Shown piece by piece: positions 1,143 through 4,766 of a stretch of 4,766 nt of DNA. This stretch comes from a virus (Duplodnaviria > Heunggongvirae > Uroviricota > Caudoviricetes), in IMG/VR virus record IMGVR_UViG_3300026367_000039, positions 1 to 4,766 of that record, one strand, 5' to 3'. How positions within the stretch are numbered: the stretch's first letter is position 1; every line of letters starts with the position of its first letter. The notes beneath the pieces were generated by a model, which was given only the letters and a program-made list of their open reading frames with translations, did not search any database and was not told the DNA's origin. A program made the position numbers and the translations under genes.

Positions 1143-1355
1143 TTACCGCCAGCGCGCGAACAGTCTGCGCAGCGCGTAGCTGCGCAGCAGGGATATGCCG
1201 ACGAAAACTGCGCCCAGCGCAAGATTGTCACCAAGGCTCGGATGCAGACCGAACCACGGGAACACCACGATCTGCGTGGCGACGGCCAGCACATAGCCCA
1301 GCGCGACATTGCTCGCGGCCTCGATCAGAGACATGCGGCGCGACTGGGCAGTCAT
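1143..1355 (-). CDS. small (70 aa) predicted two-helix membrane protein, translationally coupled to the upstream methyltransferase
   Basis: Start ATG (1355..1353) overlaps the TGA stop of the upstream gene (1354..1352) as ATGA. A strong AGGAGG (reverse complement of 1364-1369) sits 8 nt upstream. Two hydrophobic stretches (ALGYVLAVATQIVVFPWFGL and LALGAVFVGISLL) and a basic C-terminus (RRLFARWR). High GC3. Confidence 0.55.
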   Translation of the reverse strand: MTAQSRRMSLIEAASNVALGYVLAVATQIVVFPWFGLHPSLGDNLALGAVFVGISLLRSYALRRLFARWR

Positions 1356-2725
1356 GCGCGTTTCCTCCTGCGACGCGCCGGGCTCTTGGCCTCAGTTGGT
1401 TCCGCGACACGGTTGGCTGTCCGTCCCGTCGCCAGTTCCCAGCGCCGCACGGCGACGTCGCAGTAAGCGGGGTCCAGTTCCATCGCAAAACACCTCCGCC
1501 CAGCACGTTCGGCGGCCACCAGCTGGGTGCCAGAGCCGCAGAACGGCTCGTAGATCAGGTCGCCCGGATCGGTGAACGCCGTCAGCACTGCTTCAACCAG
1601 CGCCACCGGAAACACTGCGGGATGCGATCCGGCCGCGCCCAGCCCGCCCTTGTGACGCATGATGCGGAACACGCTGTCTGGGATGCGATGACTCTGGATC
1701 GCATTGCCGAAGCCCGTCTTGCGATGGACCGCGCCATCCGCCCCGCGCAAACCCCCACCGCCGAGGATCTCGCCCGCGTGCTTGCTCTCGACCGTCTTGT
1801 GCGGTTTGCGGGGCGCGCGGTTGAAGTGGAAAATGAACTCGTGCGACGGGGCCAGTCGGCCGTTCCAATCGCCCGGCAGGCCGGGCCCCTGATCCCAGAC
1901 ATACCAGCCAAACCGTCGCCAGCCAGATGCGCGCATCCATTCCACCCATCCTTCCCAATAGGGCTGCCATTCGCTGTCGCGATGCACGAGGCCAAGGTTG
2001 ACCAGCAGCTGGGCATCGGCGCAGACCGGTGCGGCAGCGAACACGCCCTGCACCAGCGCATCCCAATCGCCGACCTTTTCCTTGGCCGCGCCGTAGTCGC
2101 GTTGCTGGGCGTAGGGCGGCGAGGTGAACATCAGCGTCGCCGCCTCATTCTGCATCAGCTTGGCGACGGCGGCGGGATCGGTCGCATCGCCACAGCAGAG
2201 CCGGTGCTTGCCCAGCGCCCAGATGTCGCCCGGACGCGTGATAGGTTCAGCGGGCGGTTCGGGGATGGCGTCGGCCGCATCGTCGGAAATCACCGGGCGG
2301 TCGTCGGCGTCTGCCAACAGCGCGTCCAGTTCATCCTCGGGGATCCCGATCAGCCCGAGGTCGAAATCCTCTGCCAGCAGCGCCTGCAATTCCTGCAACA
2401 GCAGCGCTTCGTCCCAGCCGCCCAGCTCGGTTAACTTATTGTCAGCGATGCGATAAGCCCGGCGCTGCGCCTCGGTCAGATGGCCAAGAATGATGACGGG
2501 GGCCTCGGTCAGCCCAAGGTGTGCAGCTGCCAGGACGCGACCGTGGCCTGCGATCAACTCGCCATCAGCCGCGACCAGCACCGGCACGGTCCAACCGAAC
2601 TCGGCCATGCTGGCGGCGATCTTCGCGACCTGATTTGCATCGTGGGTCTTGGCGTTGCGGGCGTAAGGCTTCAGACGGGCAAGGGGCCAGTGCTCGATCC
2701 GGCCCGGCAGGATGGGTGCGTTCAT
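1352..2725 (-). CDS. ParB-like N-terminal domain fused to a beta-class DNA methyltransferase, SPPY variant (possibly N4-cytosine); 457 aa
   Basis: N-terminus MNAPILPGRIEHWPLARLKPYARNAK...DGELIAGHGRVLAAA carries the ParB/Srx-fold G-H-x-R motif. Motif IV is TSPPY, followed by HPAVFP and then the AdoMet motif I EPFCGSGTQ, i.e. beta-class order IV before I. Start placed at ATG 2725 (not the longest-ORF ATG at 2860) because the paralog alignment begins there and it forms an ATGA overlap with the upstream gene's stop. Confidence 0.85.
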   Translation of the reverse strand: MNAPILPGRIEHWPLARLKPYARNAKTHDANQVAKIAASMAEFGWTVPVLVAADGELIAGHGRVLAAAHLGLTEAPVIILGHLTEAQRRAYRIADNKLTELGGWDEALLLQELQALLAEDFDLGLIGIPEDELDALLADADDRPVISDDAADAIPEPPAEPITRPGDIWALGKHRLCCGDATDPAAVAKLMQNEAATLMFTSPPYAQQRDYGAAKEKVGDWDALVQGVFAAAPVCADAQLLVNLGLVHRDSEWQPYWEGWVEWMRASGWRRFGWYVWDQGPGLPGDWNGRLAPSHEFIFHFNRAPRKPHKTVESKHAGEILGGGGLRGADGAVHRKTGFGNAIQSHRIPDSVFRIMRHKGGLGAAGSHPAVFPVALVEAVLTAFTDPGDLIYEPFCGSGTQLVAAERAGRRCFAMELDPAYCDVAVRRWELATGRTANRVAEPTEAKSPARRRRKRA

Positions 2726-3981
2726 GCCGCCAGCCTCTTCGCCTTCAGGTCGGCAAAAGTCTCGCCAGTCTCGACCAGCGCGGCATTGGCGCCGGTGAAC
2801 TGCTGCCAGCGCTCGATGGCGACATCGACGTAAGCCGGGTTCAATTCGATGCCGAAGCACACGCGCCCGGTGGTTTCCGCCGCGATCAGCGTTGTGCCGG
2901 ACCCCATGAAAGGTTCAAACACCGCCTGACCGGGGCTGGAGTTGTTCAGGATCGGCCGGCGCATGCATTCGACCGGCTTTTGCGTGCCGTGCACGGTGGC
3001 AGCGTCCTGATCCTTGCCGGAGATGTGCCACAGCGTGGTCTGTTTCCGGTCCCCGGCCCAGTGGCCCTTGCCGGTCTTCTTCACCGCGTACCAGCAGGGT
3101 TCATGCTGCCAGTGATAGTCGCCCCGGCTGAGAACCAGCCGGTCCTTTGCCCAGATGATCTGCGAGCGCACGTTGAAGCCTGCCGCCACCAGGCTTTCCG
3201 CGACGGTCGCCGCGTGCAGCGCGCCATGCCAGACGTAAGCCACGTCGCCTGGGAACAGCGCCCAAGCCTCGCGCCAATCCGCGCGGTCATCGTTCAGCAC
3301 CTTGCCTATGCGCTTGGTTTTGGCGGCCCCCGCCTGGTTGCGCCAGGATGGGTCATATTCCACGCCATAGGGCGGGTCCGTCACCATCAGCAGAGGGCGA
3401 ATATCGCCCAGCAATCGCCCGACCACATCCGCAGACGTGCTGTCGCCGCAGATCAGCCGGTGCGATCCCAGCTGCCAAAGGTCGCCCACAACCGACACCG
3501 GCGTGACCGGCGGTTCGGGAATGTCATCCTCTCCGTCGGCAGCGCCACCTTCCAACTGGTCCGGGTCGCGCAGCAATGCATCCAGATCCTCGTCGGTGAT
3601 GCCCAGCAGCGACAGGTCGAAATCGTCGGCGAGCAGTCCCGCGATCTCATCGCGCAGCATCGCCTCGTCCCACTCGCCCAGCTCGGTCAATTTGTTGTCC
3701 GCGATCCGGTAGGCGCGGCGCTCTGCCTCGTCGAGATGGCTGAGCCGGATCACCGGCACATCCTTCAGCCCCAGCATGGCGGCCGCCAGCACACGGCCAT
3801 GCCCCGCGATCAGCTCGCCATCGTCGGCCACCATGCAGGGCACTGTCCAGCCGAACTTTGCCATGCTTGCTGCGATCTTGGCAACCTGGTCGGTGCCGTG
3901 GATCTTGGCGTTGCGGGCATAGGGGCGCAGCCGGTCAATCGGCCACGTCTCGATCTGGCTCGGTGCAAAGACCAGGTCCAT
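2722..3981 (-). CDS. ParB-like N-terminal domain fused to a beta-class N6-adenine DNA methyltransferase (CcrM/HinfI-like motifs); 419 aa
   Basis: N-terminus MDLVFAPSQIETWPIDRLRPYARNAK...DGELIAGHGRVLAAA (ParB-like). Motif IV VTDPPYG, then HGTQKP and FEPFMGSGTT, matching the CcrM-type DPPY / TQKP / FxGxGTT pattern in beta-class order. Strong GC3 bias; TGA stop at 2724..2722. Confidence 0.9.
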   Translation of the reverse strand: MDLVFAPSQIETWPIDRLRPYARNAKIHGTDQVAKIAASMAKFGWTVPCMVADDGELIAGHGRVLAAAMLGLKDVPVIRLSHLDEAERRAYRIADNKLTELGEWDEAMLRDEIAGLLADDFDLSLLGITDEDLDALLRDPDQLEGGAADGEDDIPEPPVTPVSVVGDLWQLGSHRLICGDSTSADVVGRLLGDIRPLLMVTDPPYGVEYDPSWRNQAGAAKTKRIGKVLNDDRADWREAWALFPGDVAYVWHGALHAATVAESLVAAGFNVRSQIIWAKDRLVLSRGDYHWQHEPCWYAVKKTGKGHWAGDRKQTTLWHISGKDQDAATVHGTQKPVECMRRPILNNSSPGQAVFEPFMGSGTTLIAAETTGRVCFGIELNPAYVDVAIERWQQFTGANAALVETGETFADLKAKRLAA

Positions 3982-4105
3982 GGGCGGTTCTCATTTGGGC
4001 AGAGCGGGCATGCCAACGGGCGCGGGCAATATGGCCAGCGACAGGATCGGGATCCGCGATGTGGGGGAAAACGAAAGCGCCCGAGAGGGGTGTCATCCGG
4101 GCGCA

Positions 4106-4133
4106 ATTCTTCGATGATTAAGAGGTACGTCAA
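4106..4133 (-). promoter_or_regulatory. candidate sigma70-like promoter for the methyltransferase operon (weak)
   Basis: On the minus strand, TTGACG (reverse complement of 4128-4133), a 16-nt spacer, then AAGAAT (reverse complement of 4106-4111), about 120 nt upstream of ATG 3981. The -10 match is only 4/6, so this is a by-eye guess. Confidence 0.15.
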
Positions 4134-4220
4134 GGGGGCTAGAAATGTCAACCCATTTTATGACGTGGAATCAACGCGTTCTGCGGGTTCGGGGTTTGCG
4201 GGGAAAAGCCGGTGTCGCGA

Positions 4221-4270
4221 GTGGCTTTCCGGGGTGGCTTTCTGGCCAGCGTGGCTACCAAAAAGTGGCT
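4221..4270. repeat. array of four direct GTGGCT(T) repeats (iteron-like or operator-like)
   Basis: GTGGCT at 4221, 4234, 4251 and 4265 (GTGGCTTTCC, GTGGCTTTCT, GTGGCTACCA, GTGGCTTGCC), spaced 13, 17 and 14 bp. About 0.01 occurrences of one oriented hexamer are expected by chance in 50 bp. Confidence 0.6.
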
Positions 4271-4274
4271 TGCC

Positions 4275-4295
4275 TGGATTCCACCGAGGAATCCA
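4275..4295. repeat. perfect 8-bp inverted repeat TGGATTCC-N5-GGAATCCA (candidate dimeric protein-binding site)
   Basis: TGGATTCC (4275-4282) and GGAATCCA (4288-4295) are exact reverse complements around the spacer ACCGA. Each arm contains a GANTC site. It lies immediately after the GTGGCT array. Confidence 0.6.
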
Positions 4296-4351
4296 CTTAG
4301 CCAGAAGGGTGAGACCCTAAGCATTTGATAATGAGTCAAAATTCAGGGTCG

Positions 4352-4397
4352 AGCCACTGGCTTGGCTTCGAAGTGGATTCCCCGGTGAAAAAGCCAC
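4352..4397. repeat. two opposite-orientation copies of the GTGGCT motif flanking TGGCTT repeats and a third TGGATTCC
   Basis: AGCCAC (reverse complement of GTGGCT) at 4352-4357 and 4392-4397; TGGCTT at 4358-4363 and 4363-4368; TGGATTCC again at 4374-4381. Confidence 0.5.
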
Positions 4398-4421
4398 GCG
4401 CTAGCGAAATGCCGCGCTAAG

Positions 4422-4468
4422 CCCCCCCGTATACGGATAGGGCCGGGGAGGAACCATGCTGGGGGGGG
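4422..4468. other. C7 homopolymer, 10-bp perfect palindrome CCGTATACGG, and G8 homopolymer
   Basis: C-tract 4422-4428, palindrome 4427-4436, G-tract 4461-4468. The C and G tracts are complementary and could pair, or could act as slipped-strand tracts. Confidence 0.5.
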
Positions 4469-4486
4469 TCGTGTCGGTTCCGGCCC
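4440..4486. other. GC-rich imperfect hairpin (about 11 bp of stem, 20-nt loop)
   Basis: GGGCCG (4440-4445) pairs with CGGCCC (4481-4486) and GAACC (4451-4455) pairs with GGTTC (4476-4480). No downstream T-tract, so it is not a typical intrinsic terminator. Confidence 0.35.
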
Positions 4487-4535
4487 ATTGCTGCCTTTCG
4501 CCCACCCTCGGTTATGCTGCACTGCGGTCCGCCAT

Positions 4536-4613
4536 TGCGGACTTTCGCTGCAACTGCGAAATATGATGTATAGCGAATTCACAGAGTGCGGACAAAGTTA
4601 GCATTCGCTGCAA
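4536..4613. repeat. two-copy direct repeat module TGCGGAC ... TTCGCTGCAA
   Basis: TGCGGAC at 4536-4542 and 4587-4593; TTCGCTGCAA at 4544-4553 and 4604-4613. The first copy is embedded in the small inverted repeat TTCGC-N7-GCGAA (4544-4560). Confidence 0.5.
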
Positions 4614-4766
4614 GTGCCCCATTGGCTGCTTCGTTGGCGCGAGGGTTCAGTTCTCTGTTACTGTCAAAATCCAGTCTGTAATTTGATCAAGCGAGTGTTT
4701 GGCAAATGCTTTTCGTCCCATCCCCAAATAGATATATTGCAGGTACCAAGGCCATTGAGATGTGAG

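Follow-up and report, generated by a model that had tools for sequence, protein, structure and literature searches.

C7 and G8 tracts in Rhodobacterales prophages probably delimit the core of a lambda-type cos packaging site

What are two complementary homopolymer tracts doing, 32 nt apart, in the non-coding DNA of a phage? The tracts lie in a 4,766-nt stretch of DNA from a tailed phage in IMG/VR (record IMGVR_UViG_3300026367_000039, class Caudoviricetes), and this whole stretch is called the window here. The C7 tract (CCCCCCC) is at 4422-4428 and the G8 tract (GGGGGGGG) at 4461-4468, with the interval 4429-4460 between them, and a perfect 10-bp palindrome, CCGTATACGG, at 4427-4436 shares the last two C's of the C7 tract. 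A first-pass annotation had placed all three features correctly and had offered two ideas for them, namely that the tracts slip and vary in length or that they pair as a large stem-loop, in either case to modulate the expression of an operon or to serve single-strand initiation. The reading favored here is a different one. With a probability of about 85%, the 47-nt segment that holds both tracts is the core (cosQ-cosN) of a lambda-type cos site, belonging to a temperate phage integrated in a Rhodobacterales genome. In its favor are the conservation of the site, its synteny, the family of the terminase, and homology that runs colinear with physically mapped phage ends.

Base composition alone does not make the tracts surprising. 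They are the only C or G homopolymers of at least 7 nt in the window. The sequence CCCCCCC is matched three times on the two strands, compared to 1.5 ± 1.6 times in dinucleotide shuffles, and 43 of 200 shuffles contained at least three matches. That the tracts are not there by chance follows from their conservation across homologous loci. A search pattern anchored outside both tracts found 120 stretches in species-representative genomes and 57 in IMG/VR viral contigs that carry the conserved block of about 105 nt. True homologues among these stretches number 141, nearly all of them from Rhodobacterales. The pattern itself fixes 22 nt of the block, positions that are invariant by construction, and the survey was therefore repeated with loci found through the methyltransferase protein alone. 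This pattern-independent survey yielded 54 blocks, including 39 that the pattern would have missed.

The two tracts behave differently among these relatives. The C tract is C7 in 130 of the 141 homologous loci. Nearly all of them also have a G tract at the corresponding position, of length G5 (30 loci), G6 (77), G7 (19), G8 (4), G9 (4), and G14 (1), and its full range in the pattern-defined set is G2-G14; in the 54 pattern-independent loci, it reads on the minus strand as C3-C10, mostly C5-C8. Its length is independent of that of the C tract. Pairs of loci with the same flanks on both sides differ by 1-3 nt in the G tract, for example G6 and G7 (L088 and L124; also L017 and L028) or G6 and G9 (L072 and L111). 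Slippage evidently occurs at the G tract, since its length differs between loci with the same flanks, and the variation as a whole fits replication slippage. No near-identical relative was found in which to look for tract heterogeneity within a lineage, the best non-coding match being 77% identical. The proposed length variation thus stands for the G tract and fails for C7, which is almost invariant and hence constrained rather than a contingency tract.

Conservation also separates the parts of the block that matter from those that do not. In the 54 pattern-independent loci, at least 95% conservation is seen for GGTTCCTCCC, GTAT, CGGGGGGGC, AGCGC, GCTAGCG, and TCACCGGGGAA, and around the palindrome only GTAT(G/A)CGG is conserved. 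The palindrome itself is perfect in just 3 of about 134 homologues, most of which read CCGCATACGT; it is a lineage-specific feature. As for the large stem-loop, the minimum-energy folds do include a C7:G8 stem, on both strands and for both RNA and single-stranded DNA (ssDNA). When compared to dinucleotide shuffles, the z-scores are +1.54 and +0.85 for RNA (101 nt) and -0.32 and +0.99 for ssDNA (59 nt), so that neither molecule on either strand shows any excess stability. Scans with Rfam and for tRNA and tmRNA (ARAGORN) gave no relevant match.

The position of the tracts is no better suited to a regulatory role. Both are intergenic, outside any open reading frame (ORF) and outside any promoter spacer. 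The G8 tract is 178 nt from the nearest stop codon, and the tracts lie about 290-330 nt or more from the sole promoter-like site (4106-4133) and 441-487 nt from the start of the methyltransferase gene. Modulation of an operon from sites in neither an ORF nor a promoter spacer, with the nearest promoter-like site about 330 nt off, finds no support here. A reading of the tracts as slippage-prone contingency tracts, or as a stem-loop tuning operon expression, single-strand initiation, or an ssDNA promoter, can point to the G2-G14 range, which varies even between identical flanks; to the C7:G8 stem within the minimum-energy folds; and to the ParB-methyltransferase genes nearby, since such genes are also found in plasmid leading regions. 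However, the folds are not more stable than those of shuffles, the palindrome is not conserved, and C7 stays invariant while the G tract varies, without length compensation. The tracts are also outside ORFs and promoter spacers, and the setting is a prophage rather than a conjugative element. We consider this reading extremely unlikely, and the tracts do not hold up as a regulatory or structural novelty.

The window is DNA of a lambda-like prophage of Rhodobacterales, and every protein encoded in it matches a PHROG family. On the plus strand there are an ORF of the phage family phrog_8020 (114-515) and a DUF3489 protein gene (552-1133). The minus strand carries a DUF7220 protein gene (1143-1355) and two paralogous genes for ParB-domain/N6_N4 methyltransferases (1352-2725 and 2722-3981). 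The protein of the latter joins an N6/N4 DNA methyltransferase to an N-terminal ParB-like domain, and its gene is the first after the putative cos. A non-coding interval follows from 3982 to about 4646. It holds, on the minus strand, a promoter-like site (TTGACG, 16 nt, AAGAAT; 4133-4106) upstream of the methyltransferase genes and a hairpin (GCGCCCG...CGGGCGC; 4104-4077) followed by a T-rich run (to 4061), which are context and not part of cosN. Beyond the G tract begins a variable cargo (4469-4766, minus strand), the presumed right end of the virion chromosome, with 178 nt of non-coding DNA followed by a minus-strand ORF that is cut by the window edge, only its 3' end being present (stop codon at 4647-4649).

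The relatives show what lies outside the window. About 190 related loci are arranged alike, and marker proteins mapped on the loci show this arrangement in about 100 of them; read along the minus strand, it is integrase, O-like replication gene, variable defense cargo, poly-C tract, the block of about 105 nt, repeats with an integration host factor (IHF) consensus, ParB-methyltransferases, the small terminase gene terS, a gpA-type large terminase gene terL, and lambda-like head genes. A blastn search against plasmids found 3982-4468 of the window about 70% conserved in Roseicitreum pRA03 and in a Paracoccus aminovorans replicon, the similarity ending at the G tract. In pRA03, the block is part of a prophage-like element, whose order is integrase, WYL/HTH/nuclease genes, a replication-type HTH gene, defense genes, and the block, and then two ParB-methyltransferases, small genes, terS, terL, an S49 protease, a head decoration protein, and the major capsid protein. 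In about 45 loci, terS and terL are found 5-8 kb left of the block, and in most loci cos is about 5.5 kb from terS. The window ends before terS and terL; for this copy, both are expected from synteny (the phrog_8020 ORF, DUF3489, DUF7220, and the methyltransferases).

The terminase of the homologous loci is of the lambda family. TerL matches the Pfam families GpA_ATPase (2.6e-102) and GpA_nuclease (6.5e-91). TerS matches phrog_57, terminase small subunit (3.7e-27), and no Pfam family, including Phage_Nu1. The ParB-methyltransferases and the DUF3489 protein had also suggested the leading region of an integrative and conjugative element (ICE) or plasmid, with an oriT or an Frpo-like ssDNA promoter, a candidate that was rejected on the Roseicitreum context with its terminase and capsid genes. 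Because the setting is a prophage and not a conjugative leading region, there is no basis for a role in single-strand initiation or as an ssDNA promoter, and the fold is not unusually stable in any case.

By TerL, the closest cultured phages are the RcC cluster of Rhodobacter capsulatus (62% identical), which includes RcBaka, RcOceanus, RcDormio, RcKemmy, and others (Rapala et al. 2021). The ends of these phages have been mapped experimentally and are defined, with 11-base 5' overhangs (Rapala et al. 2021, PMC8601537), and theirs is the closest known cos region. TerL alone led to this cluster; blastn of the region against the cultured-phage collection gave no match, so the family is a separate lineage, represented by prophages alone. 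The RcBaka record starts at the genome end with a ParB-like nuclease-domain gene (gene 1), four small reverse-strand genes, terS, and terL, so that the synteny after the genome end (ParB gene, small genes, terS, terL) is the same as in the prophage family studied here. The distance of about 5.5 kb between cos and terS is likewise as in RcBaka and unlike lambda.

When the two ends of RcBaka are joined, the sequence reads ...GACCCCCCGGTCTTAGGTTCTTCCGGACCCCTACGCTATG|CGGGGCGGAAGCGCGTTAAGTCCCTAGCGTGGC...GTTTCCACTT, with the last element present three times, and the minus strand of the window reads ...GACCCCCCCCAGCATGGTTCCTCCCCGGCCCTATCCGTATA|CGGGGGGGCTTAGCGCGGCATTTCGCTAGCGCGTGGC...GGAATCCACTT, colinear with RcBaka across the join. 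Read further past the join, RcBaka gives GACCCCCCGGTCTTAGGTTCTTCCGGACCCCTACGCTATG|CGGGGCGGAAGCGCGTTAAGTCCCTAGCGTGGCACGTTTTTTTTGGGTTTCCACTT and the window GACCCCCCCCAGCATGGTTCCTCCCCGGCCCTATCCGTATA|CGGGGGGGCTTAGCGCGGCATTTCGCTAGCGCGTGGCTTTTTCACCGGGGAATCCACTT. RcOceanus, whose record is rotated, has the same sequence contiguous. A profile HMM of the block matches the RcOceanus cos (E 7e-4) and the RcBaka join (E 0.07), exactly across the join, with E-values computed at a deliberately large database size (50 Mb). This colinearity maps the left end of RcBaka between positions 4430 and 4429 of the window. The first bases of the RcBaka record, CGGGGCGGAAG, align with 4417-4429, which on the minus strand is the predicted cosN cohesive-end segment CGGGGGGGCTTAG. 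Since the RcBaka end falls there, the cohesive end probably opens with the C7 tract, which reads as G7 on the minus (packaging) strand, and terminase is predicted to make its first nick on that strand between 4430 and 4429.

We infer the nick positions and the overhang length from the alignment, and we hold the exact nick and an overhang of 11-13 nt with moderate confidence. The overhang length is uncertain because the conserved flanks are 13 nt apart here, compared to 11 nt in RcBaka; in RcOceanus the spacing is 13 nt. The nick is placed by homology with RcBaka, a phage with a TerL only 62% identical and with diverged non-coding DNA. Within the predicted cohesive end, CGGGGGGGC is at least 95% conserved in the 54 loci, and C7, read as G7, opens the segment. 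Positions 9-12 of the predicted overhang vary (CGCAG, CTGAG, CTTAG), and the G run is constant.

The rest of the block falls into place around this point. On the minus strand, no conserved element lies farther out than the poly-C tract (the G8 tract of the plus strand, 4461-4468), which is about 40 nt upstream of the predicted nick and varies in length between relatives. The decamer GGTTCCTCCC (4446-4455, minus strand) comes next, at least 95% conserved in the 54 methyltransferase-found loci, and its first 7 nt form a cosQ-like GGTTCCT (4449-4455), at -26 to -20 from the predicted nick. The poly-C tract lies just beyond this element and would be the outer edge of cos. The palindrome straddles the predicted nick. 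Directly inside the cohesive end is the conserved segment CGCGGCATTTCGCTAGCG (4399-4416, minus strand), which contains a palindrome of its own, CGCTAGCG.

The RcC phages share this order of elements: poly-C, GGTTC(C/T)T, GTAT(G/A), nick, a CGGGG... overhang, CGCG...CCTAGCG, and TCCACTT-type repeats. In detail, RcBaka and RcOceanus have C6 at the place of the outer poly-C tract, and RcBaka has GGTTCTT for GGTTCCT and CGCGTTAAGTCCCTAGCG for CGCGGCATTTCGCTAGCG. At the place of the repeat array, RcBaka has three direct GTTTCCACTT repeats, compared to about 10 repeats in both orientations and an IHF consensus here. Also unlike the RcC phages, the family studied here has a ParB domain that is fused to a methyltransferase and duplicated, and its defense cargo adjoins the poly-C tract.

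One might expect the nicking site to show twofold symmetry. By inspection, the flanks of the predicted 11-13-nt overhang, CCGTATA and CGCGGCA, are not symmetric. The symmetry of the C7 and G8 tracts is centered about 16 nt upstream of the predicted nick and for that reason is unfit as the cosN symmetry. The ends of IMG/VR contigs cluster within about 60 nt of cos and not at the predicted nick; they probably reflect breaks in assembly where the variable DNA begins.

After the block, on the minus strand, comes an array of cosB-like repeats (4165-4398), about 10 copies of TGG(A/C)TTCC or GTGGCTT in both orientations, which are probable binding sites of the small terminase subunit as judged from their sequence and place. 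An IHF consensus, TATCAAATGCTTA (WATCAANNNNTTR), stands within the array (4318-4330, minus strand). It is the sole match in the window, where 0.02 would be expected, and at least one match occurred in only 4 of 200 shuffles. The sequence TTGATAATGAGTCA around it is invariant in alignment A1. The class of repeat differs between loci, being TGGMTTCC in most, TGGATTTGGC in L058 and L109, and GTGCGAACC in L025, and it covaries with the N-terminal helix-turn-helix of TerS, the block staying constant.

These repeats could also be operator sites, and with the promoter-like site and the hairpin with its T-run (4077-4133), the whole of 3982-4468 could be read as nothing but a transcriptional control region for the methyltransferase operon, with the tracts as its distal edge. 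The block does, however, occur without methyltransferase genes, for example directly upstream of terS in L025 and L058 (in L025 together with the repeats), and it is homologous to a physical genome end of the RcC phages. Control of transcription alone is thus a very unlikely account of the region. A regulatory role for the promoter-proximal part (4077-4133) is compatible with a cos site and does not explain the block.

An array of short repeats next to a bending site can mean a replication origin as well. Here, about 10 repeats in both orientations surround a lower-GC segment with the IHF consensus, and the region is downstream of the O-like initiator gene, so that the repeats might be iterons around an IHF-bent unwinding region. 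The HTH protein of the relatives is indeed a lambda O-like initiator, yet it has a separate array of five iterons, 23-25 nt apart, inside its own gene, as in the lambda ori, where the iterons lie inside the O gene. In addition, the O-like gene and the array are kept apart by 0.1-9 kb of variable cargo. The repeat class follows TerS, in L025 the repeats are next to terS, and in RcBaka the mapped genome end adjoins the equivalent repeats. An origin made of the repeats and the block is therefore given hardly any probability.

A cos site with these parts invites comparison with lambda. In lambda-like cos sites, cosQ is a highly conserved element of 7 bp (Feiss et al., PMC4669245), and cosB has the TerS sites R3, R2, and R1, with an IHF site (I1) between R3 and R2. 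Among lambda, 21, and N15, cosB differs with packaging specificity and the nicking region is constant, and the right half of lambda-type cohesive ends is variable (PMC4669245). The family here shares with lambda the terminase family (gpA ATPase and nuclease), the logical order of subsites relative to the direction of packaging, a G-rich 5' half of the predicted cohesive end, an IHF consensus among probable TerS-site repeats, and a constant nicking region combined with variable specificity repeats. The lambda cosQ, GGGTCCT (48473-48479), aligns with GGTTCCT here, 20-30 bp upstream of the nick, and lambda CGCGGGTTTTCGCTA resembles CGCGGCATTTCGCTA, both 19 nt after the nick (CGCGG..TTTCGCTA). Unlike lambda, the family has more repeats, a poly-C tract outside the cosQ-like element, about 5.5 kb of other genes between cos and terS, and a TerS without a Pfam Phage_Nu1 match. 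The best local alignment to lambda spans the nick (cosQ-cosN) in 48 of 60 family members, with z of about 1.9, and nhmmer found no match between the block and the lambda cos. For these two reasons, the likeness to the lambda cos is kept as a resemblance and not taken as demonstrated homology. The likeness is a hint that gpA-type terminases keep a common cosQ/cosN layout well outside the enteric lambdoids.

How might such a site work? The minus strand would be the direction of packaging and of the terminase genes. Along it, the order would be the defense cargo (virion right end), poly-C, GGTTCCTCCC, about 13 nt, the nick, CGGGGGGGCTTAG, CGCGGCATTTCGCTAGCG, the cosB-like TGGMTTCC array with the IHF site, the promoter, and the ParB-methyltransferases, followed in relatives by terS, terL, and head genes. 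By analogy with lambda and the RcC phages, TerS would bind the repeats, helped by an IHF-induced bend, and so bring the nuclease of the gpA-type TerL to the G7 run, where it would cut the two strands at staggered positions. The result would be a 5' overhang of 11-13 nt beginning at 4429 on the minus strand, and packaging would then go leftward. At the next cos, GGTTCCT, perhaps with the poly-C tract, may support the terminating cut. Both the protein binding and any role of the poly-C tract are steps that we infer. In this scheme, the G tract would be the last base-specific element of cos, with a hotspot for the exchange of defense cassettes beyond it. The homopolymer pair thus becomes a precise and testable annotation: it would mark cos and the genome ends in a family of lambda-like prophages that is uncultured and widespread in Rhodobacterales (Paracoccus, Rhodobacter, Gemmobacter, Roseovarius, and others).

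The outer side of the G tract is where all homology stops. The blastn matches of 87 loci end at window positions 4456-4474, except for one at 4499 (L019). More than 30 unrelated sequences adjoin the tract within a few nucleotides, and the neighboring cargo genes are co-oriented, with stop codons often 0-5 nt from the tract. Such a razor-sharp boundary with so many abutting sequences, and with stop codons of co-oriented genes so close, could be the mark of a site-specific recombination junction, either a core of the attP/attL type or an integron-like insertion point. But there is no adjacent recombinase gene, and the integrase is 6-12 kb off, with more phage genes in between, so the prophage does not end at the tract. 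No second copy of the block, inverted or direct, flanks the cargo, which on its other side simply stops at the stop codon of a conserved gene, where neither tract nor block recurs. A recombination junction at the G tract is quite improbable on these grounds. A prophage attL or attR, as a separate candidate, was rejected because phage genes and not host DNA lie beyond the tract and the integrase is not adjacent.

With the tract read as the edge of a cos site, homology ends there because a hotspot of defense cassettes lies beyond it. In the relatives, the cargo is 0.1-9 kb long and includes genes for AIPR/MzaE, type I HsdR and HsdM, GmrSD, OLD/AriAB-like (Gabija-like) ATPases, UvrD/GajB-like helicases, a DEDDh exonuclease, and others. 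Its far boundary is the stop codon of a conserved 230-aa phage gene (phrog_9306) next to the O-like gene, and these two phage genes are followed outward by VRR-NUC, an AlpA-like gene, and int. Defense hotspots next to cos have been shown for P2-like phages and P4 satellites (Rousset et al. 2022, PMC9122126), and here, too, a hypervariable antiphage block directly adjoins the cos of a temperate phage. The differences are that this is another phage lineage with another terminase, that the hosts are alphaproteobacterial, and that a homopolymer tract marks the boundary with a precision of a few nucleotides. The cos-adjacent defense hotspot known from P2 and P4 in E. coli would thus also exist in an unrelated alphaproteobacterial phage lineage, and the conserved cos block is a convenient anchor for mining defense systems. 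As for the tract itself, it might be a preferred junction for joining defense cassettes, through microhomology- or slippage-mediated joining or the repair of terminase-cut ends, or else a length-variable tuner of the terminase stop or cut at the downstream cos; we offer this as a speculation that is itself unlikely. A second copy of the promoter/hairpin module is found beyond the G tract in L002, L114, L025, L081, and other loci.

The two homopolymer tracts of the cos block, C7 (4422-4428) and G8 (4461-4468) in the window, are altered in three related loci in which the rest of the block is conserved. The most extreme G tract is the G14 of L113, the C tract is broken up in L096 (CCCCCCCACCCCG), and GTACGCCC stands in its place in L068. 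These variants may represent defective cos sites or tolerated variation. A difference in a G run is also seen between the cohesive ends of two cultured Rhodobacter capsulatus phages, RcOceanus and RcBaka, which are near-identical members of the RcC phages and for both of which an 11-base overhang has been reported. The segment reads CGGGGGGCGGAAG in RcOceanus (L190, about 170 nt from the right end of the record), compared to CGGGGCGGAAG at positions 1-11 of the RcBaka record (L185), and either slippage of the run or differing overhang boundaries could account for this. Many metagenomic viral contigs also terminate close to the cos block, at distances of up to about 60 nt, but not at the predicted nick, as judged from the first 100 nt of each contig considered (L193, L199, L214, L215, L217, L238, L239, and L255). 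These ends are probably assembly breaks at the start of the strain-variable cargo.

In most family members, the first genes after cos encode ParB-domain DNA methyltransferases. The window carries two of these in tandem on the minus strand (1352-3981), overlapping by 4 nt (ATGA, 2722-2725), and parts of the two paralogues cross-match at 73-78% DNA identity. The pair is missing or replaced in some relatives (L025 and L058). Directly upstream of the methyltransferase genes, on the same strand, lies a promoter-like site (TTGACG-16-AAGAAT), with a GC hairpin and then a T-rich run immediately after it (4061-4133). In layout, this module resembles a constitutive promoter coupled to an early terminator, the kind of arrangement seen in late operons controlled by antitermination; the terminator scan made no call at this hairpin and T-rich run. 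A second copy of the module is found across cos in L002 (4440-4530), L114, L025, L081, L042, L091, L100, and L116.

On the cargo side, non-coding DNA at 4485-4624 contains short direct repeats, with the sequences CCATTGCnGnCTTTCGC and TTCGCTGCAAsTGC, at 4485-4501/4532-4548 and 4544-4557/4604-4617. Matches of 75-90% to this DNA occur in unrelated replicons: a Sulfitobacter plasmid, where the match adjoins an IS3 transposase, a Thalassobaculum plasmid, where it is close to mobQ, L122, and Roseicitreum pRA03 (L125 38552-38589). The repeat-bearing stretch may be a small element, either mobile or regulatory in nature. The pRA03 element in L125 (pRA03 45001-95000) carries terminase and head genes, and its annotation has no tail genes downstream of the capsid gene and DUF6441, which are followed by a recombinase and repABC. 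Truncation of a prophage may explain this gene content, or the element may be satellite-like and capsid-only.

The phage origin is probably an intragenic array of five iterons (TCCGGACACGG, spaced 23-25 nt apart) in the related locus L002 (5755-5934). The array lies within a replication initiator gene resembling lambda O, an arrangement like that of the lambda origin.
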